Positions 1,885 through 50,448 of a stretch of DNA of 64,000 nt are shown piece by piece; position 1 is the stretch's first letter; each line of letters begins with the position of its first letter. This stretch comes from an uncultured Bacilli bacterium. Its GTDB lineage: Bacteria > Bacillota_I > Bacilli_A > RF39 > UBA660. Made by a program: the position numbers and the translations under genes. The notes beneath the pieces are model-generated. The model was not told the origin of the DNA, did no database searches, and worked only from the letters and a program-made list of their open reading frames with translations. The stretch covers positions 25,698 through 89,697 of the forward strand of contig CANQBL010000002.1 in assembly GCA_947589105.1 (NCBI GenBank). The letters run 5' to 3'.

Positions 1885-3018
1885 TTAATATTTATTTTTT
1901 TTATGTGTATTTATATCATAATTTAAAATAATTGCAATTCCAATCATATAACTAATTAGTGATGAACCACCATAACTTATAAAGGGTAGAGTTATTCCAG
2001 TTATTGGTAAAAGACCAATATTCATCCCTATATTTTGTATTTGCTGGTATAATATCATTGCTAAAAATCCAGAGATTATAAATTTGTGATTCTTATCATT
2101 ATTATCTTTAGCTAATTTAAATAGAGTAAAGTCAAATAGTATTATTACTATTAATAAAAATATTGTCCCTATTAAACCAAAGTTACTTGCGTATATTGAA
2201 AAAATAAAATCAGTGTGAGCTTCTGGAATATATATTGGGGTATTTCCAATTCCAAAACCAAATAATCCCGCTGATTTAATTGCGGCCATTGCGTTAGTTA
2301 ATTGCATTCCACTACTATTAGTCCAATCAAGTAATCTATCAATTCGGTAAAAGAATGATGTTCCAAAAATATTTATAAAATTATTTTCATAATTAAAATA
2401 GAAGTATAAAAAACTAAATATAAATATTAATACAAGAGAAAATATTATAAAAAAAATACTTTTTCTAATTCCAAAAATAAATAACATTATAAATGATATT
2501 AAAAAATAAATTATTACCATTCCGGTGTCTGGTTCTAAAAAGGTAAGTATGCTAGGAATAAAAGTTATTGTCATAATTAATAAAAAAAGTATAACATCAT
2601 GATAAAATTTTCTTTTTGGATATTTTTTATTAAAATATTCAAATATTTTTGTATTTATAAGTATTAAAATTATTTTGGCAAATTCACTAGGTTGTATTGA
2701 ACCTATGCCTGGTATAGCAAACCAACATTTTGATCCATTTACCTCTGTTCCAAAAATAAGAAGTAAAAAAAGTATTATGTTTATAAAGATATATAATATT
2801 ACTGATATATCTAGTATTTTTTTACAATTTATTTTAGAAGTTATAAAAATAAGTAAAAATCCTATTAAGTACCACATAATTTGCTTAGAAAAAACATCAT
2901 TATTAGAAGATGAAATAGATGTACTATATATTGTAACAAGGCTTATTATAAAAAAAGACGTTAGCAAAGTTATTAAATAATATTTTGTTTTTTTATTGCT
3001 TTTTATGGTAGTCACCAC
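1885..3018 (-). CDS. SEDS family protein (FtsW/RodA/SpoVE-type peptidoglycan polymerase/lipid II flippase)
   Basis: 377 aa, about 10 TM segments; conserved motifs PSEFAKI and GMQLTNAMAAIKSAGLFGFGIGNT...PEAHTDFIFS. Confidence 0.8.
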   Translation of the reverse strand: MVTTIKSNKKTKYYLITLLTSFFIISLVTIYSTSISSSNNDVFSKQIMWYLIGFLLIFITSKINCKKILDISVILYIFINIILFLLLIFGTEVNGSKCWFAIPGIGSIQPSEFAKIILILINTKIFEYFNKKYPKRKFYHDVILFLLIMTITFIPSILTFLEPDTGMVIIYFLISFIMLFIFGIRKSIFFIIFSLVLIFIFSFLYFYFNYENNFINIFGTSFFYRIDRLLDWTNSSGMQLTNAMAAIKSAGLFGFGIGNTPIYIPEAHTDFIFSIYASNFGLIGTIFLLIVIILFDFTLFKLAKDNNDKNHKFIISGFLAMILYQQIQNIGMNIGLLPITGITLPFISYGGSSLISYMIGIAIILNYDINTHKKNKY

Positions 3019-3424: not shown

Positions 3425-3832
3425 TTAAACACCTTCAACATAAGTGTCCCCTAGACATTTTATAGCACATAAGCAATCTGTATTTATTGTGAAGAATGAA
3501 TTTGTTGCAGTATAAGTTGATGTTTCAGCATCAAATGTTAACACTCTAAGTGTTGCACAACAACCATCTACTTTTTCAACCCTAAACGTACTTGAAGTGG
3601 TTGTTTCTCCAGGAGTATTAGATACTGGTATTGAAACTAACGTACCATTACAAGTATATAAAGTTACTGGTCTAGTGTTAAAATCAACTGATGAACTTGG
3701 ACCAAAGAAAGCTCTTGTGCATGTCTCTAAGCAAGAATCGCCAGGACAAACTTCACTTTGAAGAATGTTTATAACTTTTAGTATTTCTGCAATACAGTTA
3801 CATTTTGAACTAGGATTAGAATTGTCACACAT
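3425..3832 (-). CDS. Cysteine-rich Thr/Ser-rich hypothetical protein (possible spore coat/exosporium component)
   Basis: 135 aa with 13 Cys (CNC, CPGDSC, CTRA, GCCA, CLCAIKC) and T/S-rich tracts; RBS AAAGGGTGAAATATT-ATG on the minus strand. No family recognised. Confidence 0.5.
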   Translation of the reverse strand: MCDNSNPSSKCNCIAEILKVINILQSEVCPGDSCLETCTRAFFGPSSSVDFNTRPVTLYTCNGTLVSIPVSNTPGETTTSSTFRVEKVDGCCATLRVLTFDAETSTYTATNSFFTINTDCLCAIKCLGDTYVEGV

Positions 3833-4395: not shown

Positions 4396-5601
4396 ATGGT
4401 AGTTTCCGTGTTTTTAAATGTTATATATTTACTATTTCCATTATTATGCTATTTTCTTTATTTGGTTTATAGTAAAGTTAGTTTTGAAGAAGAAAAGTTT
4501 TTATTTTTTGATTTAGCTATTTTTTCAAGTTATTACATAGGTAGTAGATTTGGTGATTTAACAGTAATATATGGTTTTATAATTAATATTCCACTTTTAT
4601 TGGCTCTTTATAAAAAAAGAATAATACCATCTTTAGTGTTATCATTTTCTACTGCGGTTTTGTTATCTGATTTATATGGGGTATCTTTTTGGTTGTTATT
4701 AATCGAATATATTTTAATACTTATCTTTTCTTTCTTTTCTAAGTATAAGGTAATAAACGTTTTTAGTGTAATAAAAATTACGTTTGCAACGTTAATGTTT
4801 TTTTTAATACAGCGAAATTTTAATGAGAGTTTTTTATTAGTTTTTATACTATTTATAATTATGTATTTTATATTTTATTTTCTAATATCTTTATATGTTA
4901 AAATAGAAAACATAGTTAATATGTATTATTCACTTGAAAGTATAACTAAAGAAAAAAAACTATATGAATCATTATTTAAAATAACTCATGAAATTAAAAA
5001 TCCTTTAGCAGTTTGTAAGGGTTATCTTGAAATGTTTAATATAAAAGATGAAAAAAAAGCAAATAAATACATTAATATAATAAATCAAGAAATAGATAGA
5101 ACTTTAACATTGCTAAAAGATTTTTCAGATGTTTCTAAAATACACGTAGAAAAAAACATAATGGATATAACTATGTTAATGGAAGATGTTTGTGATGAGG
5201 TTTCAATTGCGTTTAATGGGAATATAAAGTTTAAAGAAGATATATTAGAAGACGAAATATTGGTAAATGGTGATTATAATAGGCTTAAACAAGTTTTAAT
5301 AAATTTAGTTAAGAATGCAAAAGAATCAATTAAAGATACTGGTATGGTTATTTTAGAAGGGAAAGTAATAAATAAAAATTATGTAATAAAAGTAATAGAC
5401 AACGGACAAGGAATGGATTCGGAAACCAGCAAAAAAATTGGAACGGCTTTTTATACAACTAAAAAAAATGGAACTGGGCTTGGAGTTTGTTTATCTAAAG
5501 AAATAATAGAAAGACATAATGGGACTATTACTTATTTTTCTAAAGAACAAAAAGGTACTACGGTTAAGATAGTAATTCCAATAAATAAGGCGTCTATTTA
5601 G
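4396..5601 (+). CDS. Orphan sensor histidine kinase with polytopic N-terminal membrane domain
   Basis: 401 aa with about 5-6 TM segments. HisKA H-box HEIKNPLAVCKGYLEM; HATPase_c N-box LVKNAKESI, G1 DNGQGM and G2 GTGLGV. No adjacent response regulator. Confidence 0.8.
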   Translation: MVVSVFLNVIYLLFPLLCYFLYLVYSKVSFEEEKFLFFDLAIFSSYYIGSRFGDLTVIYGFIINIPLLLALYKKRIIPSLVLSFSTAVLLSDLYGVSFWLLLIEYILILIFSFFSKYKVINVFSVIKITFATLMFFLIQRNFNESFLLVFILFIIMYFIFYFLISLYVKIENIVNMYYSLESITKEKKLYESLFKITHEIKNPLAVCKGYLEMFNIKDEKKANKYINIINQEIDRTLTLLKDFSDVSKIHVEKNIMDITMLMEDVCDEVSIAFNGNIKFKEDILEDEILVNGDYNRLKQVLINLVKNAKESIKDTGMVILEGKVINKNYVIKVIDNGQGMDSETSKKIGTAFYTTKKNGTGLGVCLSKEIIERHNGTITYFSKEQKGTTVKIVIPINKASI

Positions 5602-11941: not shown

Positions 11942-12088
11942 CTTGTTTATTTCTTTTTTAATACCCTTTATAATCAAAGTTAAAGTTTATTATGTTAGTT
12001 AATATAATCTAAAAAATAGTATTTTTTTGTAGAAATAATAATAAAAACAATGTATAATTATATTAGAGATAAGGTAAGGTGGTATTAT

Positions 12089-13447
12089 ATGATAAATTTA
12101 GTAAAAAAAGAAAATCTTAATCTTGGAATATTGGAAACTGATTTTGATGTTTTTGCTGATATTGTTAATACCTTTTCTAGCGAAGAAGCAAAAAAAGATT
12201 GTTTGCTTGATTTAGATGAGTATGTTATTCCACAATATTTTAGAAATAAAATTACATTAGTTGTTCAAACTAACAAGATGCTTATTGGATATACCACTTT
12301 TGAGTTTAAAAATAATAATAATATTTCTCAAGTTGAGATAAATAAATTATATGTTCTTGATGAGTTTAAAAATAAAAATATGGAAGCACTTTTGATTGAA
12401 GGAGTCATATATATTGCAGGGGAGGTTGGCTCTAGAAATGTTTTAGTTACGGTAGATGAACATAATTCTGGAATGCTTAAAATTTATCAATCTTTAGGTT
12501 TTTATGAGGTTGGTATAAACGAAACCGGAAATCTTTTAAGTGTAAATGTAAATTCAGCGGTTAGAATTAGAATGCTTAATGATAAATTTAGGAATATTCC
12601 AAGTGATTCAGTAGATTATAAAAGTTTAAAGTTAGTTAAGAAGATAACAACTGGAAGGTCAGGTAATATTTACTTAACTCAAGACGGAAGAATTCTTAAG
12701 ATGTTTACTTCTACTTCTTTTACCTATGTAAAAGATAGGGAAGAAACTATTAAATATATTAAAAGTCTTGATATTCCTGAAATTGTAAAACCAAAACATT
12801 TAGTTTACTATGATGGTATATTTGTTGGATACATAATGGAATATCTTCCAGAAGGTGATGCTTTATGCAAGAAGAGTGAAAGTTATAGTTTTGAAGAAAA
12901 AATTGACAAGATAAAAGAAATTGAAAGAGTTATGAAAAAACTTCATAAAGAAAAGATTTATATATGTGATTTAAATCCTGATAATATTTTCTTTGATAAA
13001 AATGGAAGAATTAAATTAATAGATTGTGATGCTTTTGTTGTTAAAGATAATGTTATTAATAATGAGGTTGATTTAAAATTTAGAGATCCTTTAAATAAAA
13101 TAGTTTCAGAAAAAACAGATTTGTATGCTTTTTCTATTACAACTTTACAACTTTTAATAGATAAAGAAATTCCTAATGATGCTAGTTTTTCAGAAGTAGA
13201 AAAGATATATAGTAAAAATAAAAATAAATTACCAATAAGTTTTAAAAATTATTATGATAATATATTTAAAGGAAAAGATCGCTATTACTTAACAGATTCT
13301 TACGAACGTTATTTAAATGAAATGTATACAATGGATGGAAATGATGATGAAGATAATAAAAGTGGTAGAATTAGTGTCATTATATTATCGTTTATAATGC
13401 TTGTAATTGCGGTTATTGGTTATTTTGTATTTAAATCTAGCAAGTAG
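12089..13447 (+). CDS. Fusion protein: N-terminal GNAT acetyltransferase domain, eukaryotic-like protein kinase-like domain, and C-terminal TM anchor
   Basis: ATG at 12089 follows the RBS AAGGTGG. The GNAT-like region reads ALLIEGVIYIAGEVGSRNV...KIYQSLGFYEV. Kinase-like elements: G-loop GRSGNIY, Lys motif ILKMF, catalytic loop ICDLNPDNIFF, DFG-like LIDCDAF. A C-terminal hydrophobic helix (ISVIILSFIMLVIAVIGYFVF) follows. Confidence 0.55.
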   Translation: MINLVKKENLNLGILETDFDVFADIVNTFSSEEAKKDCLLDLDEYVIPQYFRNKITLVVQTNKMLIGYTTFEFKNNNNISQVEINKLYVLDEFKNKNMEALLIEGVIYIAGEVGSRNVLVTVDEHNSGMLKIYQSLGFYEVGINETGNLLSVNVNSAVRIRMLNDKFRNIPSDSVDYKSLKLVKKITTGRSGNIYLTQDGRILKMFTSTSFTYVKDREETIKYIKSLDIPEIVKPKHLVYYDGIFVGYIMEYLPEGDALCKKSESYSFEEKIDKIKEIERVMKKLHKEKIYICDLNPDNIFFDKNGRIKLIDCDAFVVKDNVINNEVDLKFRDPLNKIVSEKTDLYAFSITTLQLLIDKEIPNDASFSEVEKIYSKNKNKLPISFKNYYDNIFKGKDRYYLTDSYERYLNEMYTMDGNDDEDNKSGRISVIILSFIMLVIAVIGYFVFKSSK

Positions 13448-13592: not shown

Positions 13593-15605
13593 ATGAATTT
13601 ATTAAGCATTTTAGAAATTATATTTAATAATGCACAAAACGAAATACAAAAATCAAATTTAGAAGCTTCTGATGTAGCTAAACAAGAGGATAAACAATGG
13701 CTTGAAAAATTAAATAAAAAGTGTATTTTAAAAACAAATAACAAAGTTTATACTGCTAAAGAAGGAATTATTGAAGCCAAAAAGCAACGTAATAAAATTT
13801 TACTTGATTTAACAACTGGTAAGAATGATGAGAAAACTCAAATCAAATTAGGAGAAGACTTAGTTTATTTAAATAAAGTAATTTATAGTTATGACACTTG
13901 TTTTATTGAAAAAGAAAACGTTAAAAATGAAGCTATATTAATTGATGCTAAAAATAAAAAAAGTACGGCAGTAAAAAATGCTATTGAAGATTCAATTAAA
14001 AAAATTAACGAGCAAATAACTAAAATGGTAGGAGAACTTGACGAATTAAAACAGGATATAGTTAATTGCAACAATATAGAAGAATTAGACAAAAAATATG
14101 AAAAATATAAAAACATAGTTCAATTAAATAAATTTAAAAATGCTATGCAAGAACTTTTATCTATTAATGGAGTAATAAAAAGTGAAACTGCTTTAGCTTC
14201 TTTAAAAGAAGGACTAATTGATGAACATAAATCAGTTGTTGAGTCATATTATAAACTTATAATTCTTAACGGTATAAATTTAAAAAGACATACTAAATCA
14301 AAGGATACTGATTTTGGAAAATCAGATAATGAAAATGCAATTAATGAAATAAATTATTATTTTGATATAGCAAAGGAAAAAAATAGTAAAGAAGCTTTAA
14401 ATTATGCTGTTGATTTAATTAAACTAATAAATGACAAAGATTTAAGAGGCGATTTAGAATCTGAAGCTGCTTCAATTTCTTCTTTAATGAATACAAAACC
14501 TAAAAAAGATTTGTCTAAAGAAGTACAACAAGCAAAAGAATTAGTTGAAATAGTAAAAAAGACTGGAAAAGTAAAAGATTTTAAAAATGCTTTAAAGGCT
14601 AAAAATTCACTTCCTGAAGGTGAACAAAGAGATGAGATATCTAAAGAATTATTAGAGGTTTGTGAAAAAAATAAAAATAATTTTGATAAGTTATTTAATA
14701 AAATACTTGATGATATTTGTTTGGATAAAAATCTTCTAGAAGATGAAATAAATGAATTAACAGATCGTTATCAATATTTAAAAAAAGATTACGTATCTGA
14801 AATACAAAATGAATATGATAAAATTATAACGATTTATAATAATCAAGTTCAAAAACAATATCAAAAAAGTTTAAATGAAAAAGATATTGAAAAATATAGT
14901 GCTGCTGATAAGTTTAGAGAAATATTTGGTGGTATTATAGTTAACTTCTTTTCTGGTGCTATAAAAAATTCTCACTATCGTAAATTAAATAAATTACCAG
15001 AAAAATTATCTGAAGAAAAAAATGAAGCTGAAGAAAAGAAAATTTTAAATAAAATTAATAAAGTAAAAGAAGAAATTTCTGAAAGTGATGTTGTAAGTGG
15101 AATAAGATTATTTGTTTCAAGAAATAAACTAGCTAAGAAAAAGCCAAAATTATATAAAGAGGATGTTAATAATAAAGGATTTAAAAAAGTTAGTGAAGAT
15201 GAAATATTATATCAGACAAGAGAAACTGATAATATTAGTAAACTATTAACTCGTGGTTTAAATAAAAAGCTAAGAGATAGTAATATTTTAAATAGTAAAT
15301 CTCGTGCTATTACAATACTAGAACAATATTTAGAATTAATTTCTTCTGGTACTTATAATGCGGATTATGTGATAGAAGCTTATAATTTCTTAAAAAATGT
15401 AGAAGATGTTCTTTCAGAAAGTGAATATAAAGGATATTATGATGAAATTAGAATGATTGATGAATATCGTAAAAGTAATTATGGTATGCCTTATCATATG
15501 AATAATAAAGAAGATCATAACGAAGTTGATGATGTAATTAAATATTATGATAGTGAAGAATATCAAGAAGCTTTAAAAGAGGGAAGGTTTATTAAAAGGA
15601 ATTAA
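13593..15605 (+). CDS. Large (670 aa) charged coiled-coil hypothetical protein
   Basis: Strong RBS (AAGGGGGAGATTTGA-ATG). K/E-rich, predicted extended alpha-helical. No catalytic motif recognised. Confidence 0.5.
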   Translation: MNLLSILEIIFNNAQNEIQKSNLEASDVAKQEDKQWLEKLNKKCILKTNNKVYTAKEGIIEAKKQRNKILLDLTTGKNDEKTQIKLGEDLVYLNKVIYSYDTCFIEKENVKNEAILIDAKNKKSTAVKNAIEDSIKKINEQITKMVGELDELKQDIVNCNNIEELDKKYEKYKNIVQLNKFKNAMQELLSINGVIKSETALASLKEGLIDEHKSVVESYYKLIILNGINLKRHTKSKDTDFGKSDNENAINEINYYFDIAKEKNSKEALNYAVDLIKLINDKDLRGDLESEAASISSLMNTKPKKDLSKEVQQAKELVEIVKKTGKVKDFKNALKAKNSLPEGEQRDEISKELLEVCEKNKNNFDKLFNKILDDICLDKNLLEDEINELTDRYQYLKKDYVSEIQNEYDKIITIYNNQVQKQYQKSLNEKDIEKYSAADKFREIFGGIIVNFFSGAIKNSHYRKLNKLPEKLSEEKNEAEEKKILNKINKVKEEISESDVVSGIRLFVSRNKLAKKKPKLYKEDVNNKGFKKVSEDEILYQTRETDNISKLLTRGLNKKLRDSNILNSKSRAITILEQYLELISSGTYNADYVIEAYNFLKNVEDVLSESEYKGYYDEIRMIDEYRKSNYGMPYHMNNKEDHNEVDDVIKYYDSEEYQEALKEGRFIKRN

Positions 15606-36745: not shown

Positions 36746-38020
36746 ATGAACATAACTAGTATTATAGAAAAAAAGAAAGATAAAAAAAATCTTAGTGAAG
36801 ATGAAATTATTTATGCGGTTAACGCTTATGTAATGGGACTTATATCTGATGCTCAAATGTCAGCTTTATTAATGGCAATTTGTATTAATGGAATGAACTT
36901 AGAAGAAACTTATTTTTTAACTAAAGCTATGATAGAAAGCGGTAACGTAATAGATTTATCCAATATTCCTGGAATTAAAGTCGATAAACATTCTACTGGA
37001 GGGGTAGGAGATAAAACAACTCTTATCGTAGCTCCAATTGTTTGTTCTTGCGGCGTTAGTGTTGCAAAATTATCAGGAAGAGGTCTTGGTCATACTGGAG
37101 GAACTATTGATAAACTTGAATCTATTAAAGGTTTTAAATCGGATTTAAGCGAAGAAGAATTTATAAAACAAGTAAAAGAAATTGGAATAGTTGATGCACA
37201 GCAAACGAAGCAAATAGTTCCTGCGGATAAAAAAATATATGCTTTAAGGGACGTTACCGGAACTACAAGATCAGTACCTTTAATTGCATCTTCTATAATG
37301 AGTAAGAAAATAGCTGCAGGAGCTGATAAAATTGTTTTAGATGTTAAAACTGGTTCTGGAGCATTAATAACTGATTTTGAGGAATCCGTTGAGCTTGCTA
37401 AAACAATGGTTTTTCTTGGTAAAAAATTTAATAAAGAAACTATAGCCCTTATAACCGATATGAATGAGCCTCTTGGAAATTCAATAGGTAATGCACTAGA
37501 AGTTAAGGAAGCAATAAAAACCCTTGAAGGTAATGGCGAAGAAAGATTAACTGAGTTATGTTTAACAATTGCTTCTTACATGATAAGTTTAGGTAAACAA
37601 ATATCTTTTGAAGAAGCAAAAAAACAGGCGCAAGAAGCTTATACATCTAAAAAAGCATTGGAAAAATTTAAAGAATTTATTAAGTATCAAGGTGGTAATA
37701 TAGAAGATATAAAAACTTCAAAAAATTTTTATGATATACACTCTAATTATGATGGATATATAAGAGATATAGATGAGACTGTTCTTGCTATGGAATGTTT
37801 AAAAATGGGTTCTGGAAGAATTAATAAAGAAGATAAAATAAATTATGGTGTTGGTATCGTTATTAAAAAACATATAGGAAATTATGTTTCTAAAGGAGAT
37901 ATACTGGCAACTATTTATTATGATGATAAGAAGCCTGATAATAAAAACATAATAAATTCCTTTATGTTAAGTGAAAAAAAAGAAAAAGGTTTTCCACTTA
38001 TATATACGGTAATTAAATAA
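36746..38020 (+). CDS. pdp: Pyrimidine-nucleoside (thymidine) phosphorylase
   Basis: 424 aa; motifs DKHSTGGVGDKTTL and SGRGLGHTGGT, plus the C-terminal PYNP domain. Confidence 0.9.
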   Translation: MNITSIIEKKKDKKNLSEDEIIYAVNAYVMGLISDAQMSALLMAICINGMNLEETYFLTKAMIESGNVIDLSNIPGIKVDKHSTGGVGDKTTLIVAPIVCSCGVSVAKLSGRGLGHTGGTIDKLESIKGFKSDLSEEEFIKQVKEIGIVDAQQTKQIVPADKKIYALRDVTGTTRSVPLIASSIMSKKIAAGADKIVLDVKTGSGALITDFEESVELAKTMVFLGKKFNKETIALITDMNEPLGNSIGNALEVKEAIKTLEGNGEERLTELCLTIASYMISLGKQISFEEAKKQAQEAYTSKKALEKFKEFIKYQGGNIEDIKTSKNFYDIHSNYDGYIRDIDETVLAMECLKMGSGRINKEDKINYGVGIVIKKHIGNYVSKGDILATIYYDDKKPDNKNIINSFMLSEKKEKGFPLIYTVIK

Positions 38021-38076: not shown

Positions 38077-39282
38077 ATGAAAAAAATATGTTTTTTTATT
38101 GTTTGTATGTTTTTCTTTGTACCGTTTGTTTTTGCTGTTACAAATGAAGAGGGTATTGGAGAAAAAAATGAGAAAAACCAAACTGAAACAAGTACTTTAG
38201 ATGATGGTTTATTAAATGATGGTAAAAGTGCAATACTAATAGAAGCATCAACGGGAAAGATCCTTTATGAAAAAAATTCTCATGAACGTTATGCTCCTGC
38301 TTCTATGACCAAAATAATGAGCATGATTCTTATTATGGAGGCAATAGAAAAAGGAAAATTAAAATGGAATGATGTTTTAGTTACTAGTGAATATGCGTCT
38401 TCAATGGGTGGGTCTCAAATATTTTTACAACCTAATGAAAAAATGAGTGTTAAAGACTTATTTAAAGCTGTTGCTATAGGTTCTGCTAATGATGCAACGG
38501 TAGTTTTTGCTGAAACAATAGCAGGAACTGAGGAAAAATTCGTAAGTAAAATGAATGATAAAGCTAAAAAATTAGGTCTTAAAGATACCAATTTTAAAAA
38601 TGCGGTAGGATTAGATGAAGCTAATCATTATTCTTCTGCTTATGACATGTCCATAATGGCAAAAGAACTAGTTAAACATGAAAAAATATTTGATTTTACT
38701 ACGGTTTATGAAGATTATTTAAGACAAAATACTGATAATAAATTTTGGTTAGTTAACACTAATAAGTTAATTAAAACATACGAAGGAGCCGATGGTCTTA
38801 AAACGGGTTATACAAAAGAAGCAGGATACTGTTTAACTGCAACTGCTAAAAAAAATGACATGAGACTTATTGCAACCATCATGGGAGCAAGTGATAGCAA
38901 AAAAAGAAATAGTAACATGGCAACCCTTTTAGATTATGGATATAACTCTTATGAAATACAAGTAGAGGTAAAAAAAGGGGAAACAGTATCTAAAAAAAAT
39001 ATCACAAAAGCAAAAGATCAAATAGTAGAAATAGTTCCTAAAAATGATGCTAGCGTACTAATAGAAAAAGGAGAAGAAAATAAAAATTTAAATTATGAAA
39101 TAGATTTAGGTAAAATTAAATTGCCAATTAAAAGTGGTGATAAGGTAGGAATATTAAAGTTAAAAGATGGAAATAAAGTAGTAAGTACGGTAGATTTAAC
39201 GGTTAAAAAAGATGTTCAAAAAGCTAGTATATTACAATTGTATAAAAGATCAATTAAAAGTGTATTATCAGGAAATATGTAA
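38077..39282 (+). CDS. dacF: D-alanyl-D-alanine carboxypeptidase (PBP5/DacF-like)
   Basis: Signal peptide; SXXK (SMTK), SXN (SAND) and KTG (KTGYT) motifs; C-terminal PBP5_C domain. Lies two genes upstream of spoIIAA-sigF, as dacF does in Bacillus. Confidence 0.8.
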   Translation: MKKICFFIVCMFFFVPFVFAVTNEEGIGEKNEKNQTETSTLDDGLLNDGKSAILIEASTGKILYEKNSHERYAPASMTKIMSMILIMEAIEKGKLKWNDVLVTSEYASSMGGSQIFLQPNEKMSVKDLFKAVAIGSANDATVVFAETIAGTEEKFVSKMNDKAKKLGLKDTNFKNAVGLDEANHYSSAYDMSIMAKELVKHEKIFDFTTVYEDYLRQNTDNKFWLVNTNKLIKTYEGADGLKTGYTKEAGYCLTATAKKNDMRLIATIMGASDSKKRNSNMATLLDYGYNSYEIQVEVKKGETVSKKNITKAKDQIVEIVPKNDASVLIEKGEENKNLNYEIDLGKIKLPIKSGDKVGILKLKDGNKVVSTVDLTVKKDVQKASILQLYKRSIKSVLSGNM

Positions 39283-39310
39283 AGACCTTTCAAGGTCTTT
39301 TTAATATTTA
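39283..39310 (+). terminator. Rho-independent terminator after dacF
   Basis: AAGACCTT-tc-AAGGTCTT followed by TTTAATATTT. Confidence 0.65.
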
Positions 39311-39374
39311 TTTTAAAATATATATAGCTAATAAATATATTAAGATGTTATAATAAAAAAGGAGATGATATAAA

Positions 39375-40349
39375 ATGAACGTGACAATATTAGGAGCAGG
39401 AGCTTATGCTTTAGCGCTAGCACTAAGATTTAATAAAAATAATAATAAAATAGTAATTTGGTCAGCAGTTAAAAAAGAAATATTAGAGTTAAATAAAACC
39501 AAAAAAAATGAAAAAGCTTTACCTGGAATTATTATGCCGGATAATTTTATTTATACAACAGATGAAAAAAAGGCTATAGAAGGTTCTGATATAGTGGTTT
39601 TGGCAGTTGCAACTAAATATTTATCTAGTGTTTGTAATACCATAAAACCATATATAAAAAATAAACATATAGTAATAGCATCGAAGGGAATAGAACAAGA
39701 AACTAATAATTTTGCTAGTAATATAGTTAAGAATAAACTAAAAACAAGAAAATTATGTACGATATCAGGTCCTTCTTTTGCAAAGGATATGGCATCGGAT
39801 GAATTAATAGGGTTATCACTTGCTACTACTAATAATAAGACAAAACAAGTTGTTATTAAGGCATTGTCATCAAGTACTTTAAAAATAAGGTCTACTAATG
39901 ATTTTTTAGGCGTTGAACTTTGTGGGACCTTAAAAAACGTAATAGCTGTAGCATCAGGTATATTAGATGGAATGAAAGTATCAGAATCTACTAAAGCAAT
40001 GTTTTTAACAGAAAGTTTAAATGATACAAGAAAACTTATAAAGAAAATAGGAGGAAATGAAAAAACAATTCTTTCTTTCGCTGGTTTTGGGGATATATTG
40101 TTAACTTGTACCTCTTTAAGCTCCCGAAATTACTATTATGGAAAGTTAATAGGAGAAGGGAAAAGTAAAGAAAAATTAAATGAATATTTAAATAATAATA
40201 CAGTAGAGGGAGTGTACACTTTAAAATCAATTTATGGGTTAATAAAAAGTAAAAGGGTTAAAATGCCATTTATTGATCTTATTTATGATGTTGTTTTTGA
40301 CTATCGTAACACTAAGGATATATTACCATTTTTAAAAGAAAAAGAGTAA
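39375..40349 (+). CDS. gpsA: NAD(P)H-dependent glycerol-3-phosphate dehydrogenase
   Basis: N-terminal GAGAYALALA Rossmann motif and the GTLKNVIAVASGILDGM catalytic region. Confidence 0.8.
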   Translation: MNVTILGAGAYALALALRFNKNNNKIVIWSAVKKEILELNKTKKNEKALPGIIMPDNFIYTTDEKKAIEGSDIVVLAVATKYLSSVCNTIKPYIKNKHIVIASKGIEQETNNFASNIVKNKLKTRKLCTISGPSFAKDMASDELIGLSLATTNNKTKQVVIKALSSSTLKIRSTNDFLGVELCGTLKNVIAVASGILDGMKVSESTKAMFLTESLNDTRKLIKKIGGNEKTILSFAGFGDILLTCTSLSSRNYYYGKLIGEGKSKEKLNEYLNNNTVEGVYTLKSIYGLIKSKRVKMPFIDLIYDVVFDYRNTKDILPFLKEKE

Positions 40350-40365
40350 AAAAACCCCAAAAAAG

Positions 40366-40392
40366 GAACACTAATTTGAAGTGTTTTTTTTT
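40366..40392 (+). terminator. Rho-independent terminator after gpsA
   Basis: GGAACACT-aatttga-AGTGTT followed by TTTTTTTTTAT. Confidence 0.65.
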
Positions 40393-40407
40393 ATTTTTGT
40401 AAGCTTG

Positions 40408-40414
40408 TGTCGAA
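40408..40414 (+). promoter_or_regulatory. Spo0A box (TGTCGAA) upstream of the spoIIAA-sigF operon
   Basis: Perfect 7-mer 0A-box consensus, 55 nt upstream of the spoIIAA start codon. Confidence 0.4.
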
Positions 40415-40468
40415 AGTCTTTTTTTTAATGTCTAATAGTGATTAAATAAATTTGTAGGAGGAATTAAG

Positions 40469-40786
40469 TTGCTTAAAGTATTAATGGAATTTAGGAAGGG
40501 AATTCTTTTCGTAAGACTTTATGGAAAACTAGATGATACAACTTTAGATATCTTTGAAAATGATGTTAAGGAGGTGATTATTCAATCTGGTATAAGATAT
40601 GTTGTTTTAAATACTTATAATTTGGAAAGTATATCTAATGAAGGAATTAAGCAGATAAAGCGCCTAAGACGAATACTTAAAAAGACAGATGGTGAATTTT
40701 TCTTGTTTGGAGGGGAAATAAAAGAACTCAAATCTCTGGTCAATCTAGAAAACGAACTAAAGGTATTTGAAAGGGTTGTGATATAG
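40469..40786 (+). CDS. spoIIAA: Anti-sigma factor antagonist (STAS domain; SpoIIAA-like)
   Basis: 105 aa; TTG start after AGGAGG. STAS fold with a candidate phospho-Ser in LESISNEG, aligned to DSSGLGV of SpoIIAA. Confidence 0.7.
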   Translation: MLKVLMEFRKGILFVRLYGKLDDTTLDIFENDVKEVIIQSGIRYVVLNTYNLESISNEGIKQIKRLRRILKKTDGEFFLFGGEIKELKSLVNLENELKVFERVVI

Positions 40787-41454
40787 TGATAGAACAAGCT
40801 TACGAAAAAGTAATCAATCAAAATAGTAAATTAGTATATGGTATTTGCTCTAAATATAGTAATTATAAAGATAAGGAAGACTTACATCAAGTAGGAATGT
40901 TAGGTCTTATAAAAGCCTATAATAATTATGACAATAATAAAAATACTAAATTTTCTACTTATGCTTTTCCATACATTGTAGGAGAGGTAAGTAAATACGT
41001 AAGAGAAAATAAATCTATAAAGGTAAGTAAAGATTTAATTAGGCTAGGAAGAAAGATAAATGAATATATTGATAAACATTTTGAAGTAAGAGGTTATAAA
41101 CCATCTATTAGTAACATAGCTTTAATGTTAGAAGTTAAAGAAGAAAAAGTAATTAGTGCGCTAGATGCTTACGGAATGATTACTAAAAGTTTGGATGAAG
41201 AAATAAATGATGATGGTAAAACAATTACTCTTTTAGACGTAACTCCTACTGAACAAAAGATAAGTAATGAGCAAATGATGGATTTAAAAGAGGCTTTTGA
41301 GTGCTTAAGCGAGCAAGAAAAAGAATTACTAATAAATAGATATTTTAAGGACTTAACACAAAGTGAGGTAGCAGAATTATTTGGTGTTAATCAAGTATAT
41401 GTGTCAAGGTTAGAAAAAAAAGCTTTGACTAAAATGAAAAATAAGATGTCTTAG
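40786..41454 (+). CDS. sigF: Sporulation sigma factor, SigF/SigG family
   Basis: GTG start overlaps the spoIIAA stop (taGTG). Region 2 (KFSTYAFPYIVGEVSKYVRENKSIKVS) and region 4 (YFKDLTQSEVAELFGVNQVYVSRLEKK) are near-identical to B. subtilis SigF/SigG motifs. Confidence 0.8.
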   Translation: MIEQAYEKVINQNSKLVYGICSKYSNYKDKEDLHQVGMLGLIKAYNNYDNNKNTKFSTYAFPYIVGEVSKYVRENKSIKVSKDLIRLGRKINEYIDKHFEVRGYKPSISNIALMLEVKEEKVISALDAYGMITKSLDEEINDDGKTITLLDVTPTEQKISNEQMMDLKEAFECLSEQEKELLINRYFKDLTQSEVAELFGVNQVYVSRLEKKALTKMKNKMS

Positions 41455-41477
41455 GCTAAACAATATTAAAAAAACAC

Positions 41478-41508
41478 GAATAAAACACCTTTAAGATAAG
41501 GTGTTTTA
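41478..41508 (+). terminator. Rho-independent terminator after sigF
   Basis: AAAACACCTT-taagat-AAGGTGTTTT followed by ATTAT. Confidence 0.7.
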
Positions 41509-41601
41509 TTATATGTAAAATTATTTTACATAAGGTATATATTCTTGTTTACTGGGAATATTTTTAATGATAATATTTATTTAGATAATAGGAGTGAAGG
41601 C

Positions 41602-42663
41602 ATGAAAAAGGACGTAACTGAATATTTAGGTTTTGAAAATGAAGATATTAAGAAAAAAGTTGGTAGACCAAAACTTGCAGATAAAAATACTAAAAGAAAA
41701 TCTTTAATTATTGCTGCATTATCTTTTTTTGCTGTTACTCTATTACTTATTTTTGGGTATGGAAGCTTATTTGGATTTAGAAGTACTAATTTATTAGGAA
41801 CAGTAAATAATATAAATAGTAAAAATGTTGATCAAAATATACTTATTACGGACTTATCTGCTTTAATAAAAGATATTACAATAAAAGAAAAAACGGCAAG
41901 AAAGTTATATTTAACGGTGTCACCTGCAAATGCTAGTAATAAAAAAATAATATATAAAAGTTCTGATAATACTATTGCAACGGTTGATTCTAATGGAAAG
42001 GTAACTGGTCTAAAAGAAGGTTTTGTTACTATAAAGGCTATTGCAACGGATGGGTCTTTAAAAACAACAACTTTTAATGTTACGGTTATAAAAGATGCAT
42101 CAGGAAAATGTACTTTTTCTTCTTTAGAAAAAAATAGCAATGGAATTTTTTATCAAATATCTTGCGATAATGCTAAGGTAAAGGAAATTCAATATAAAGT
42201 TGGAAATACTGATTTTAATAAGTTAAGTACAAAAAAATTAAGTGATATAGTTAAATTTTCAAAAGAACAGTTAAATGAAAAAATAACTCTTAAGGTTGTT
42301 TATTATCCAAATAATAGTAAGGTAACTAAGTATTCTACTAGAACGATTAATAACGTTTCTAATACTAAAAAAACAAATGGTAGCTGCGCTCTTACTATTA
42401 AAGAGGTAAAGTCAAATAGTGCTAAATATGATATAACATGTGATAATGCAACCGTAACTAAAATTGCTTATAAAATTGGTAGTGGTAGCTATGTAGGAAT
42501 AGATTCAAGTAGTTTAGCAGATACAATTTTATTTGAAGAAAGTGATATTACTAGGGTAATATATTTTAACGTTGAGTATAATATAGATGGAAGTGATGAA
42601 CTTAAAACAATTTCTAAAAGCAGTGTAATAGAAAAAGTCTCTTCTAATAATTTTGTAAATTGA
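41602..42663 (+). CDS. Membrane-anchored Big_2 (bacterial Ig-like) domain protein with repeated Cys-containing modules
   Basis: N-terminal TM; Big_2 signature (SSDNTIATVDSNGKVTGLKEGFVTIKAIA), then two homologous modules sharing C...Y.I.CDNA.V..I.YK.G. Confidence 0.6.
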   Translation: MKKDVTEYLGFENEDIKKKVGRPKLADKNTKRKSLIIAALSFFAVTLLLIFGYGSLFGFRSTNLLGTVNNINSKNVDQNILITDLSALIKDITIKEKTARKLYLTVSPANASNKKIIYKSSDNTIATVDSNGKVTGLKEGFVTIKAIATDGSLKTTTFNVTVIKDASGKCTFSSLEKNSNGIFYQISCDNAKVKEIQYKVGNTDFNKLSTKKLSDIVKFSKEQLNEKITLKVVYYPNNSKVTKYSTRTINNVSNTKKTNGSCALTIKEVKSNSAKYDITCDNATVTKIAYKIGSGSYVGIDSSSLADTILFEESDITRVIYFNVEYNIDGSDELKTISKSSVIEKVSSNNFVN

Positions 42664-42758: not shown

Positions 42759-43496
42759 ATGATGCATGATATTTTAAATACTAATTGGTATGAAGTATGG
42801 GTTGTAGCAGCAAGAGCAATATTTTCTCTTGTAACTCTTTTTTTAATTACCAAAATGATAGGAAAAAAACAAGTTTCGGAACTTAGTTTATTTGATTATG
42901 TTATAAGTATATCAATAGGAAATTTTGCAGCGGAAATGACGATGAATTTAGATTCTCAAGTTTTAAATGGCTTTATATCGGTTGTTATTTTTGGTTTTAT
43001 AGCAACAACGGTTTCTATTTTGACAATGAAAAGTGTTGTTTTAAGAAGATTTTTTATGGGAACACCAACCATTATAATTCAGGAGGGTTCTTTTGCATTA
43101 AAAAATCTAAAAAAAATAAAATTTGATATAAATGATTTTTTAGAAACCGCAAGAAGTGCTGGATATTTTGATATTAGTCAAATAAAATATGCGATAATGG
43201 AAGCAGATGGTAAAATAAGTTTTTTACCAAAAGAAGAAAATTTACCAGTTACTAATAAAGACATGAACTTAAAGCCTAGTAAACAGGGTCTTTGTGCAAA
43301 TGTTATAATTGATGGTAAAATAATGAAAAATAATTTAGAAAATATTAATAAGGATAAAGATTGGTTGATAAAAAACTTAAAAATTAAAGGGCATGAAAAA
43401 ATAGAAGATATTTTACTTGCAACCGTTGATGTAAACGAAAAACTAACAGTATTTAATAAAAAAGATATTAAAGACGTTAAAAACGTATTAGAATAA
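42759..43496 (+). CDS. DUF421 (YetF/YdfS-like) membrane protein
   Basis: VAARAIFSLVTLFLITKMIGKKQVSELSLFDYVISISIGNFAAEM is typical of DUF421, followed by a C-terminal DUF1657-like soluble part. Confidence 0.65.
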   Translation: MMHDILNTNWYEVWVVAARAIFSLVTLFLITKMIGKKQVSELSLFDYVISISIGNFAAEMTMNLDSQVLNGFISVVIFGFIATTVSILTMKSVVLRRFFMGTPTIIIQEGSFALKNLKKIKFDINDFLETARSAGYFDISQIKYAIMEADGKISFLPKEENLPVTNKDMNLKPSKQGLCANVIIDGKIMKNNLENINKDKDWLIKNLKIKGHEKIEDILLATVDVNEKLTVFNKKDIKDVKNVLE

Positions 43497-46230: not shown

Positions 46231-47262
46231 ATGATTGGCGTAATAGAAAGGGTTAAGAATAACGTTCTTTTAAAGTGTAGCGCTTTAAATGATAAAATTA
46301 TTTCTAAAACCCTAATTGATATTATAAATGAAGGCATATATCATTTTGCGGAAGATTTAATGAGTTTGATAAGTGATATAAATTTTGATTTAACAGAAGA
46401 CGACTTACGTAAAAAAACTAGTGATATTATTAAAGTTTTAATTATTAAGAAAATAAAAAGAAAACTTTTTATTGATTCGCTTGCACTTCAAATAACAAAT
46501 GATTCGTATATTGAGGATTATTTTAATAAAAATATTAATTTAGATGAAATAAAAAATTCGTATATTAAAGAACTTAATGTTAATAAAAGTTCTAACCAAC
46601 TTAATATGACAGAAGATCTTAATCTTAATGAAATAATTCAAAATTTACGATTTTATATTAATGAAAATATTACTAACAGTATAAAAGAAAACGTTTTTTT
46701 AGTAAATGCGATAGATTCTTTGATAGAAAAAACAAAAAGTGAATTAGAACAAAGCTTGCAAAATATGATTAATGTTGCGGATTTAAATTATTTGGATATT
46801 TTAACTAACGAATTAAAAGAAAATATGAATGAAGAGAATAAAAAAGTAGAAAAAGGGGAAGAAAAGATGATGGAAAATGAAAGTATAGTTACAAATGATA
46901 ACTTAAAAGAAAACATTCATGATATTAACAAATTTGATAAATATGATGATATGACATTGTTTAATAAAACGATTTTAAGTCTTAATACAAAAGAAGAAAA
47001 ATTAACAAGAAAAGAAAATAGTTTAGAAAAAAGAAAAGAAGAAGTTGACGAACGTTTGAGTGCTACAAATAAAAATATTGAGGCAAACATTGAAAGGGAA
47101 AATAAATTATCTCAAAAGAAGTTAGAATTAAATTCAAAAGAAGTAGAACTTAATTCTAAATTATCAGAGGCTGAGGTAATATTCCTTAATATGAAACCTC
47201 TTATTAAAGGTTTGAACAAAATTATGGTTTCTGATGAGAAAGGTGGTAATGATGGTGAGTAA
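46231..47262 (+). CDS. Hypothetical acidic coiled-coil protein
   Basis: 343 aa with a strong RBS (AAGGAGGCTAGTT-ATG) and an E/K/N-rich C-terminal coiled coil. Confidence 0.45.
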   Translation: MIGVIERVKNNVLLKCSALNDKIISKTLIDIINEGIYHFAEDLMSLISDINFDLTEDDLRKKTSDIIKVLIIKKIKRKLFIDSLALQITNDSYIEDYFNKNINLDEIKNSYIKELNVNKSSNQLNMTEDLNLNEIIQNLRFYINENITNSIKENVFLVNAIDSLIEKTKSELEQSLQNMINVADLNYLDILTNELKENMNEENKKVEKGEEKMMENESIVTNDNLKENIHDINKFDKYDDMTLFNKTILSLNTKEEKLTRKENSLEKRKEEVDERLSATNKNIEANIERENKLSQKKLELNSKEVELNSKLSEAEVIFLNMKPLIKGLNKIMVSDEKGGNDGE

Positions 47263-48586
47263 ATTATTAAGTAGTGTTTTAGATAAAGTTAGTGAAGATA
47301 ATAACTCATATCGAATGAATCTAAGAAATTTAAATAAAGCCATCGATGAAAAAACAACTGCGTTAGTAGGTGATGTTGTTACCCTTTCTAATTATACGAT
47401 AGATTTTTCTAATGCAGTAATAACTGCAAAGGATATGCTAGTAAATCCAATATCAAGAGTAATAGAATCGTATGTTATTAAAGATTTAAGAAGTGTTGAA
47501 ACAGTAAATGAGCAATTTGTTGATAAGATAAACGATAAAATCGATAATTCAAGTATAAATAATTTTAATGAAAAGGATAGTTTTATACAAAATCTAGATT
47601 CATTGTTAAATGATAAATATTTAGAAATAGTTAAAATAAAACGGGTTAACTTTTTAAATGAAAAAGAAGAAAATGAGGATATTAAATCTGCTATTAATAA
47701 CTTTATTTCATTTTTAAAAAATGCTACTAATTTTGAAGATAATAAATTAGAAAATTTAATGTTAACATATGAAAAAGATTTATATAATATTATATCTTTA
47801 ACTTTAGACGAAATTAGCAAGTTATATTTGAATAATTTTGTTAGTGAAGTAACAAGTTCTTTAAACGCTAATTTAAATGTTGGTGAAACAATACAAAATT
47901 TAAATTCTACTGATGATTCTTTTGTTCCTTACATGCCAGATATTAAACCAGTTTTAGAAACGGGAGTACCACCAGTTCCAGAAATACCAGTGATTTCAAA
48001 TGATAGTAATTCTGATATTCAAAATGTTACTTCTTCAGTTCCAGAAATTCCAACAATAGAAGAAAACAAAGTACTTCCTATGGATATTCCTTCAATTGCT
48101 CCGATAGAAATAACTGATAAAAATAAGGAAGAAGAAGTAAAGAAAACTTATGATGTTGAAGAAATTCTTAAGATAGCTAAATCTCCAGTTGCTTCTTTAC
48201 CTATAGAGGAAAAGAAAAATGATAGTGATTATTTATCTGTGGCACCAATTTCTGTGAAAGAAGAAAGCGATGTAATTGATTCTGAATTTGATGAAAAAGA
48301 AATAGTTGAAGAAATGATTGCTAGATTATCAAAACGATTAGATCTTATAAACGAAAGACAGAAAAAATATGAAGAAGAAAAACAAAAATTAGAAGAAGAT
48401 GAAAGCTTTGTTAATGATTTAATTAATAGTTCTAATGCTAAAAAAGAAGAATTAGATAAATTTGAAGAGGAATTAAATAACAAAGAAAAAGAAATCGAAG
48501 AAAAACAAAAAGAATTAGATAAAAAAATTAATGATGTTTTACCTTTTGCAGATGCAATAATGAAAACAGAACACGAAGAGGCTTAA
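47252..48586 (+). CDS. Hypothetical acidic protein with Pro-rich linker and C-terminal coiled coil
   Basis: Start placed at the ATG after AAAGGTGG; overlaps the upstream gene by 11 nt. Contains PVLETGVPPVPEIPVIS...PEIPTIEE and a C-terminal EEEKQKLEE coiled coil. Confidence 0.45.
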   Translation: MVSKLLSSVLDKVSEDNNSYRMNLRNLNKAIDEKTTALVGDVVTLSNYTIDFSNAVITAKDMLVNPISRVIESYVIKDLRSVETVNEQFVDKINDKIDNSSINNFNEKDSFIQNLDSLLNDKYLEIVKIKRVNFLNEKEENEDIKSAINNFISFLKNATNFEDNKLENLMLTYEKDLYNIISLTLDEISKLYLNNFVSEVTSSLNANLNVGETIQNLNSTDDSFVPYMPDIKPVLETGVPPVPEIPVISNDSNSDIQNVTSSVPEIPTIEENKVLPMDIPSIAPIEITDKNKEEEVKKTYDVEEILKIAKSPVASLPIEEKKNDSDYLSVAPISVKEESDVIDSEFDEKEIVEEMIARLSKRLDLINERQKKYEEEKQKLEEDESFVNDLINSSNAKKEELDKFEEELNNKEKEIEEKQKELDKKINDVLPFADAIMKTEHEEA

Positions 48587-48620: not shown

Positions 48621-48656
48621 ATACATATAGTTAATTAGAAAGATATGGAGGATAAT

Positions 48657-49157
48657 ATGATTAATAAACAAAAATTGTGGTTTTTAACTTTATTTAGCTT
48701 AATACTTGTTTTGAGTGTATATTATATTACTATGCCTAGTGAACTATTGACTACTACCAAAACTAATAGCAATAAAGAAAAAACAAATACCGATAAAGTA
48801 AATGTAACAGAAACGGATTTTTTAACGGCACTTCAAGTTGAAGCTGATGAAGAACGAGCTTCTTTAGCGGCAGAGTATAATGAAATATTAACTAACAAAG
48901 ACACTACAACAGAAGAAAAAAATAATGCTTATGATGGTCTTAAAGAAATAGATGAGATAAAAGCAAAAGAAGAAGAATTAGAAAAAAAATTGAAAAAACA
49001 ACTAAAGCTTGATTCTTTCATTAAAATTGATTCAAATAATGTAAGTGTAACTATAAAGAAAAAAGATCATGATTATTCTCTTGCAAACAATGTAATGAGA
49101 CTCATTCAAGAAGAATATCAGAACAAGATGTATGTTTCTGTAAAATTTCAAAATTAA
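48657..49157 (+). CDS. spoIIIAH: Stage III sporulation protein AH (SpoIIIAH-like)
   Basis: ATG after GGAGG. MINKQKLWFLTLFSLILVLSVYYITMPSE closely matches the B. subtilis SpoIIIAH N-terminus (MLKKQTVWLLTMLSLVVVLSVYYIMSPES); the C-terminus has a YscJ/FliF-like domain. Confidence 0.7.
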   Translation: MINKQKLWFLTLFSLILVLSVYYITMPSELLTTTKTNSNKEKTNTDKVNVTETDFLTALQVEADEERASLAAEYNEILTNKDTTTEEKNNAYDGLKEIDEIKAKEEELEKKLKKQLKLDSFIKIDSNNVSVTIKKKDHDYSLANNVMRLIQEEYQNKMYVSVKFQN

Positions 49158-49491: not shown

Positions 49492-50448
49492 ATGCTAAGA
49501 AAATTTGCTTATAATAAAATATTTAGGACAACTGGTATGCTTTTACTCTTACTTTTGCTTCTTTTGTTTCCTGCTTCTAAAGAATATAGCTTAGAAGATG
49601 ATAGGGTGGTAAAAACTAGTTCTAATATGGAAAAGAATGAAGTCTTTTTAATTGATAAAGATGGTTATGTAGCAAGATGCAAGGTAAATATTAGTGCTGA
49701 TAATGATGAAAAGTATGCTAAAAAACTAATAGAGTTATTAATTATAGGTGGTAAATACGAAGAAAAAATCCCTAATGGTTTTAAAGCTATATTACCAACG
49801 GATCTTAAAATAAATAGTGTAAGTATAAATGGAAGTGATATAACAATTGATGTATCAAATGATATTTATGAATTAAGAAAAAAAGATGACGAACTTGCTA
49901 TTGAAGCTTTAACGTTTAATTTAACATCAATTGATGGTATTTCAAATCTATATATTAACGTTGATGGTAGTCCCCTTAAAACATTTACTATATCTGGAAG
50001 GAATGTAGTTCAACCATTTAGTAAAAAAGATGGTATTAATAAGATTTATGATGTTATTAATTATAAAAATGTAAACAATGTTATAGTATATTATGTAAGC
50101 CGAGGCAACAATAATTATTATTACGTTCCTGTTACAAAGGTAACTAATGATAATAGAGATAAAATAAAAATTATAATAGATGAGTTGACATCATCACATA
50201 TATATGAAACAAATTTGATGAGTTTTCTTAATTATAATGCTAAACTTTTAAACTATGATATTACTGATGGAACTTTAACTCTTAACTTTAATAATTTTTT
50301 ATTTGATGATGAAAACACGAAAAGTATTTTAGAAGAAGTAATATATTCTATTTCTTTATCAGTTAGGGATAATTATAATGTTAAAGAAGTAGTATTTAAT
50401 GTAGAAGGTAAGGAAATTACAAAAAGTGTTATAAAAAATATTGAATAA
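49492..50448 (+). CDS. Secreted/lipoprotein-like protein, possibly GerM-type (tandem GerMN-like domains)
   Basis: Poly-Leu signal sequence (MLLLLLLLLFPAS), 318 aa. Sits beside gerE and spoIIIAH. The GerM assignment is from architecture and context only. Confidence 0.35.
   Translation: MLRKFAYNKIFRTTGMLLLLLLLLLFPASKEYSLEDDRVVKTSSNMEKNEVFLIDKDGYVARCKVNISADNDEKYAKKLIELLIIGGKYEEKIPNGFKAILPTDLKINSVSINGSDITIDVSNDIYELRKKDDELAIEALTFNLTSIDGISNLYINVDGSPLKTFTISGRNVVQPFSKKDGINKIYDVINYKNVNNVIVYYVSRGNNNYYYVPVTKVTNDNRDKIKIIIDELTSSHIYETNLMSFLNYNAKLLNYDITDGTLTLNFNNFLFDDENTKSILEEVIYSISLSVRDNYNVKEVVFNVEGKEITKSVIKNIE

Follow-up and report, generated by a model that had tools for sequence, protein, structure and literature searches.

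A two-gene STAS-sigma-F-like operon without spoIIAB in uncultured Bacilli of the order RF39

A compact operon for a STAS-domain protein and a sigma-F-like factor, with no gene for the anti-sigma kinase SpoIIAB between them, lies in a 64,000-nt stretch of DNA from an uncultured bacterium of the Bacilli order RF39 (assembly GCA_947589105.1, contig CANQBL010000002.1, positions 25,698 to 89,697 of the forward strand; hereafter the window). The G+C content of the window is ~25%. The STAS gene (40469..40786, plus strand) is the first gene of the operon and lies immediately 5' of the sigma gene. It starts with TTG after an AGGAGG ribosome-binding site and encodes a protein of 105 aa that matches PF01740 with 36 bits. 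The sigma gene (40786..41454, plus strand) encodes 222 aa from a GTG start. The TAG stop codon of the STAS gene (40784-40786) and the GTG start codon of the sigma gene (40786) have one G in common (ATA TAG TG), and because of this one-base overlap the locus has no space for a spoIIAB remnant. Open reading frame (ORF) calls and the sequence itself bear out the gene order dacF-gpsA-STAS-sigma, the coordinates and the overlap that were given in a preliminary description of this DNA.

Upstream, a gene for a DacF-like S11 D,D-carboxypeptidase (38077..39282, plus strand; Peptidase_S11 at 274 bits plus PBP5_C) is a synteny marker for the spoIIA region and stands outside the operon. Between this gene and the operon, the window has an intercalated gpsA gene for glycerol-3-phosphate dehydrogenase (39375..40349, plus strand), with both the N- and C-terminal NAD_Gly3P_dh domains and an NF000942 score of 286 bits, above the cut-off. 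A hairpin with a T-run, read off the sequence, follows gpsA (40367..40392, plus strand). It is likely the gpsA terminator, which would separate the STAS-sigma operon from gpsA. Its G-C pairs were too few for the consensus terminator scan to call it; most close relatives have a hairpin with a T-run at the equivalent position, with differing stem sequences. Next comes a Spo0A box (TGTCGAA; 40408..40414, plus strand), 61 nt upstream of the STAS start codon, and 18 nt past this box a -10-like element (TAATAGTG; 40433..40440, plus strand), which forms a putative promoter. A promoter scan of the 40250-41650 region called no canonical sigma-70 promoter upstream of the STAS gene. The sole terminator-like call in the same region, where 0.1 would be expected by chance, was a palindrome after the sigma gene (41479..41510, called on the minus strand), which probably closes the two-gene operon.

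The claim of the preliminary description that SpoIIAB is missing between STAS and sigma was upheld. A search of the 64-kb window in all six frames with a SpoIIAB hidden Markov model (HMM) matched nothing but a histidine kinase gene at 4396-5601 (E 2e-4). This kinase was ruled out as a hidden SpoIIAB by its classical HisKA plus HATPase_c architecture.

Relatives were collected by scanning one genome per GTDB species, which gave 80 loci, 65 of them in the window sigma's own clade. The sequence per locus extended up to 10 kb on each side of the sigma gene (~20 kb in total, less at contig ends). In 61 of the 65 clade loci, all from metagenome-assembled genomes (MAGs) of uncultured Bacilli and spread over several species and studies, the STAS gene adjoins the sigma gene without SpoIIAB between them, and no SpoIIAB-like ORF was found in the sequence around any of the 65. 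In 58 of these 61 loci, the sigma gene begins -1 to +12 nt from the STAS stop, which suggests that the two genes are translationally coupled there. The canonical order spoIIAA-spoIIAB-sigF was present only in four Clostridia-type loci (L064, L076, L079 and L086); 12 more loci were of the sigG type, with spoIIGA-sigE seen upstream in L063. The earlier premise that the three-gene spoIIA operon is invariant was wrong.

Records of the clade are labelled as uncultured Bacilli, Mollicutes or Tenericutes, and include Clostridium sp. CAG:594, CAG:302 and Candidatus Faecimonas. CAG-594 (Candidatus Aphodocola) belongs to family CAG-433 of the order RF39, and CAG-877 (Faecimonas) to family CAG-611 of the same order (PMC8035907). 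The window STAS shares 77% identity with the protein of Aphodocola excrementigallinarum, which puts the source of the window close to Candidatus Aphodocola and family CAG-433 within RF39. The two-gene STAS-sigma arrangement occurs in no fewer than two families of the order (CAG-433 and CAG-611).

Synteny in these sister genomes, to which the preliminary description had pointed as a check, places the operon in the spoIIA region. The genes spoVAC-AD-AE are located downstream of sigma in ~50 of the 65 loci (Pfam-confirmed on L027), a DacF-like gene is located upstream of STAS-sigma in ~20 of the 65 (Pfam-confirmed on L037), and gpsA is found immediately upstream in ~21 related loci. Since dacF lies upstream and spoVAC-AD-AE downstream in the relatives, the locus is identified as spoIIA minus an excised spoIIAB. 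In the closest relatives (L007, L008, L012 and L019), sigma is followed by a gene for a variable surface protein and then by spoVAC-AD-AE. No spoVA genes were found anywhere in the 64-kb window, where the gene for a membrane-anchored Big_2 protein (41545-42663) runs directly to a YetF/DUF421 gene (42759-43496). In the window genome, spoVAC-AD-AE may have been relocated or lost.

Four related loci (L050, L053, L056 and L057) have a sigma-F-like gene without any STAS gene, at positions 7005, 2023, 10067 and 9959, respectively. It is followed by spoVAC-AD-AE in three of them and by other genes in L057. A forward Spo0A box is retained in three of the four, with ~60 nt between it and the start of sigma; the copy in L053 is degenerate. 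These loci suggest a stepwise reduction from AA-AB-sigF through AA-sigF to sigF alone. As a separate observation, the MAG Lapin-030__bin25 contains two different STAS-sigma operons (L015 and L023), with a dN of 0.13 and a dS of 1.17 between the two STAS copies; either two RF39 species share one bin, or the operon was duplicated.

On synteny and the best HMM match, the window sigma is a divergent, N-terminally short SigF orthologue. Its highest NCBIfam scores were 196 bits for the SigB/F/G model (cut-off 234) and 189.8 bits for the SigF model TIGR02885 (cut-off 321.45), followed by 155-165 bits for SigG and 144 bits for SigB, every one of them under the cut-off. Six other sigmas of the clade reached 154-203 bits with the SigF model, also under its curated cut-off, while a canonical SigF (L064, 341 bits) and a canonical SigG (L063) passed theirs. 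The SigF model nevertheless exceeded the SigG model by 15-55 bits in all eight proteins tested, and the SigB model by 45-80 bits. The best PDB match of the window sigma was sigma-F in its complex with SpoIIAB (1L0O_C, E 1e-40). Because this alignment begins at chain residue 28, ~25-30 N-terminal residues seem to be missing from the window sigma. As to whether the factor belongs with SigF, SigG or SigB, a check named in the preliminary description, pairwise identity of the clade sigmas does not discriminate (34% to SigF, 33% to SigG), and a neighbour-joining tree recovers the clade as monophyletic. In the clade, the sigma gene lies in a dacF-spoIIA-spoVA region; the window itself has the dacF part but not the spoVA part. 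A SigB-type identity was ruled out by the HMM scores and the synteny.

The Spo0A box that had been reported at 40408 is real and widely conserved. Of 64 loci, 57 have TGTCGAA ahead of STAS, without exception in the forward orientation and against a background of 0.11 per kb; its spacing to the true STAS start is constant across loci, at ~61 nt. More distant families have two to three Spo0A boxes. A -10-like consensus (tAatAGTG, of the TAnAGTG type) is held ~18 nt after the box across the box-anchored loci, and we infer that this element is part of the promoter. Further downstream, 20 of 50 loci have a forespore-type promoter (GnATR-N17/18-CATnnTA) ahead of spoVAC, where ~0.01 would be expected; the form GTATA-N17/18-CATAnTA is conserved 5' of spoVAC among L007-L065 (e.g., at 2337-2395 in L013). 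Because a forespore-type promoter precedes spoVAC, promoter recognition of the SigF/SigG type seems to be preserved in RF39. Candidate promoters of this type before dacF and yetF of the window were rejected, as their spacings do not fit the motif; the window has one strict match, which is at chance level.

The STAS protein retains the fold of SpoIIAA but has lost its hallmark residues. The window STAS scored 27.5 bits with the SpoIIAA equivalog model TIGR02886, which does not reach the cut-off of 114.75. Its best PDB match by phmmer was SpoIIAA (1TH8_B, E 3e-5). An AlphaFold2 (AF2) model with a mean predicted local confidence (pLDDT) of 78 had SpoIIAA as its top Foldseek matches in the PDB (1TH8_B and 1H4Z, template modelling (TM) scores of 0.53-0.60), and the modelled STAS fold is intact and nearest to SpoIIAA. 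Five reference SpoIIAA proteins are invariant at S54, F55, M56, D57, S58, S59, G60, G62, G66, R67 and Y68. In the 61 clade STAS proteins, the corresponding SFMDSSGxG...GRY motif is eroded. The column of the phospho-acceptor Ser58 holds Lys in 17, Ser in 11, Asn in 8 and Gln in 7 proteins, with others in the remainder, and is among the most variable (entropy 3.06 bits); G62 is mainly replaced by Lys, while G66, R67 and Y68 are gone. The preliminary description had held that the phosphorylatable Ser is kept in the window STAS. Contrary to this claim, a HMMER alignment to Geobacillus SpoIIAA shows Asn in the Ser58 column, and the Ser of the window motif ISNEG aligns with Asp57 of SpoIIAA. Since the motif, including the phospho-Ser, is gone, the STAS protein would no longer be a substrate of SpoIIAB.

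The gene has nevertheless been maintained. Among 260 close pairs, the median dN/dS was 0.17 for STAS versus 0.14 for sigma; a value of ~0.17 indicates purifying selection, and therefore a functional gene. The signal for coevolution of the two proteins was weak, with a mirror-tree partial correlation of 0.36 between STAS and sigma given SpoVAD. A single natural STAS-sigma fusion (P0078, 324 aa) was found on a 1215-bp ENA contig, where Gln takes the place of the stop; it could be a genuine fusion or a sequencing error.

The loss of spoIIAB in RF39 was already known, because a KEGG-orthology survey of Bacilli genomes that were >95% complete (PMC10868615, Microb Genom 2024) lists both spoIIAB and spoIIE among the genes reduced or absent in this order; the idea that the case is unreported does not hold. 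RF39 genomes are reduced. The survey finds several further sporulation genes missing from them, and predicts that RF39 form spores under markedly different regulation. The survey records presence and absence: a term search of its main text gave no mention of spoIIAA, sigF or an anti-sigma factor, and we saw no discussion in that text of operon structure, a phosphosite or a Spo0A box (PMC10868615). No earlier description seems to exist of how the operon is built, of the lost phosphosite or of the retained STAS. In the cultured relative Turicibacter, SpoIIAA and SpoIIAB are both of the canonical kind. We found nothing in the literature on RF39 in spore-enriched stool fractions.

Our preferred reading, which we consider reasonably probable, is that spoIIA of RF39 has been reduced to STAS and sigma-F, that the phosphorylation switch is gone, that timing is provided by Spo0A, and that STAS has a role independent of phosphorylation. 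The ancestral spoIIAA-spoIIAB-sigF operon would have become two translationally coupled genes by a clean excision of spoIIAB. STAS would have been kept under purifying selection and in coupling with sigma-F, though without the phospho-Ser motif. Sigma-F would then operate outside the phosphorylation-driven partner switch, its timing being set mainly by Spo0A~P-dependent transcription through the conserved Spo0A box, and STAS would act in a way that does not involve phosphorylation. Tentatively, STAS may act stoichiometrically on sigma-F itself; the alternative is that it acts on another partner. That STAS became a direct, phosphorylation-independent regulator of sigma-F after the loss of SpoIIAB and SpoIIE, so that a three-component switch turned into a sigma/STAS pair, seems to us rather doubtful. 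If it did, forespore-specific activation would depend on a mechanism without described precedent among endospore formers.

Several points weigh against the preferred reading. No member of RF39 is known to form spores, and no cultured spore former of the order is known. At the site that holds spoVAC-AD-AE in its closest relatives, the window genome has none of these genes. STAS is dispensable in some lineages, since four related loci have sigma-F without it. AF2 speaks neither for nor against direct docking of STAS on sigma: the model of the fusion P0078, built on a small, balanced, shallow and unpaired alignment of 12 sigma and 24 STAS sequences, reached a predicted TM score (pTM) of 0.31, with a disordered, low-confidence junction. 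Finally, the genome-wide absence of SpoIIAB and SpoIIE comes from one KEGG-orthology survey, whose wording is 'reduced presence or complete absence', and highly divergent proteins could escape such a survey (PMC10868615).

The survey wording also leaves room for a split operon, in which the gene for an anti-sigma-F factor lies at another site in the genome and STAS antagonizes this factor without phosphorylation. The factor might be a degenerate GHKL protein that is no kinase and has diverged too far to be caught by orthology calls. Purifying selection on STAS and its coupling to sigma are as expected of an antagonist that is still needed, and the sequence inspected amounts to 64 kb of the window genome and to the flanks of the sigma gene in the relatives. 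However, the SpoIIAB-contact surface (DSSGxG...GRY) belongs to the most variable regions of the clade STAS, well beyond the Ser alone, the surroundings of the 65 related loci are devoid of a SpoIIAB-like ORF, and the survey found spoIIAB reduced or absent in genomes that were nearly complete (PMC10868615). We consider this explanation unlikely. Of the two alternatives put forward in the preliminary description, a different control of the SigF-like factor is favoured over a kinase encoded elsewhere, because the docking and phosphorylation motif of STAS is eroded clade-wide and because of the reported reduction or absence of spoIIAB in the order (PMC10868615). The observation itself was correct and is confirmed as lineage-wide; its interpretation is partly supported.

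An alternative explanation might be that RF39 does not sporulate, and that STAS-sigma is either a remnant or serves a non-sporulation regulon, with the loss of SpoIIAB reflecting erosion of the pathway. One sporulation predictor, which finds spoIIAB in all of its predicted spore-formers, gives RF39 MAGs a sporulation probability of 0%. The reduced genomes with their other missing sporulation genes (PMC10868615), the lack of spoVAC-AD-AE in the window genome at the relatives' position, and the loss of STAS in some loci would fit such a decay as well. Yet STAS and sigma alike are under purifying selection, and conservation between families is seen for the Spo0A box and for the forespore-type promoter ahead of spoVA. 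Moreover, intact ORFs of the window match Pfam families of spore coat, SpoIIIAH, GerM, YqfD and YetF proteins, and the survey predicts spore formation in RF39 (PMC10868615). This explanation seems distinctly improbable.

An artefact in which an assembly gap, frameshift or mis-binning took spoIIAB out of the contig is hardly conceivable: all sources are metagenome assemblies, which are prone to local errors, but nothing specific for an artefact was found, the STAS/sigma overlap leaves a remnant no room, and the structure is repeated in 61 loci of various species and studies as well as on independently assembled contigs, an identical sigma being present on 11 contigs (ENA, Logan and NCBI) and the gene order of the window on the six of these that were compared. 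Neither chance nor a gap or frameshift, which the preliminary description had named as a possible refutation, accounts for the arrangement.

Apart from the operon, the window has genes for CotF, CotZ, SpoVE-like, YetF, SpoIIIAH, GerM and YqfD proteins. At its start, a gene for a phage-type holin (Phage_holin_6_1; 380-688) lies beside CotF-domain genes. A cluster in the same region encodes a CotF-domain protein (945-1307), an FtsW/RodA/SpoVE-family protein (1885-3018, minus strand), a CotZ-like coat protein (3425-3832, minus strand) and the HisKA histidine kinase (4396-5601). No response regulator is encoded immediately next to this kinase, which could be one that phosphorylates Spo0A. In the nusA-infB operon region, a gene for a Hanks-type Ser/Thr kinase (Pkinase; 12050-13447) and one for a 670-aa protein without Pfam match (13593-15605) sit between rbfA and truB. 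A pyrimidine-nucleoside phosphorylase gene (36746-38020) precedes the DacF-like gene; it was identified, like the Big_2 and YetF/DUF421 genes, by ORF calls with Pfam/NCBIfam scans. Two overlapping ORFs without Pfam match (46231-47262, 343 aa; 47234-48586, 450 aa) lie just upstream of SpoIIIAH (48645-49157), and may encode divergent sporulation proteins. SpoIIIAH is followed by genes for a GerE-like protein of 68 aa and for GerM (49492-50448).

SpoIIAB and SpoIIE are, to our knowledge, usually regarded as core components of every endospore former. In Bacillus subtilis, removal of SpoIIAB leads to premature release of sigma-F, which is deleterious. A common gut order that keeps sigma-F with a Spo0A box, spoVA, coat and engulfment genes while it has dropped the kinase and, as the survey lists it, the phosphatase too (PMC10868615) would either activate sigma-F in the forespore by another route or run a simplified sporulation programme. 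This bears on the evolution of cell-specific sigma-F activation and on the minimal sporulation network. It also bears on the prediction of sporulation from MAGs, for which some tools take spoIIAB as a universal marker.

At the level of the lineage, our results agree with the RF39 survey on the same fact, the reduction or absence of spoIIAB and spoIIE (PMC10868615). The RF39 locus shares with canonical spoIIA of Bacillus and Clostridia the upstream dacF, the downstream spoVA genes, a STAS gene in first and a sigma-F-type gene in last position, and a Spo0A box in the promoter; the closest solved structures are likewise SpoIIAA (1TH8, 1H4Z) and sigma-F (1L0O). In contrast to the canonical system with its PP2C phosphatase SpoIIE, the RF39 locus is without the GHKL anti-sigma/kinase SpoIIAB, its STAS is without phospho-Ser and docking motif, and its sigma-F is ~25-30 N-terminal residues shorter and falls under every SigF and SigG cut-off, while SpoIIE is reported as reduced or absent in the order (PMC10868615).

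With RsbV-RsbW-SigB, the RF39 system has in common the protein families and the three-part logic from which they are known, and SigB was the third-best model for the window sigma. It differs in that the SigF model was clearly ahead, the synteny is sporulation-specific, and RsbW is absent from the locus. A further parallel is the SigF-UsfX-RsfA/RsfB system of Mycobacterium tuberculosis, which also involves a SigF-family sigma; the UsfX-RsfB structure (8IH8) was among the Foldseek matches of the window STAS. Mycobacteria keep the GHKL-type anti-sigma factor UsfX, whereas no such partner is evident at the RF39 locus. Yet RsfA, a redox-controlled STAS-type antagonist of UsfX that is not governed by phosphorylation, shows that a STAS protein can work without a phospho-switch.

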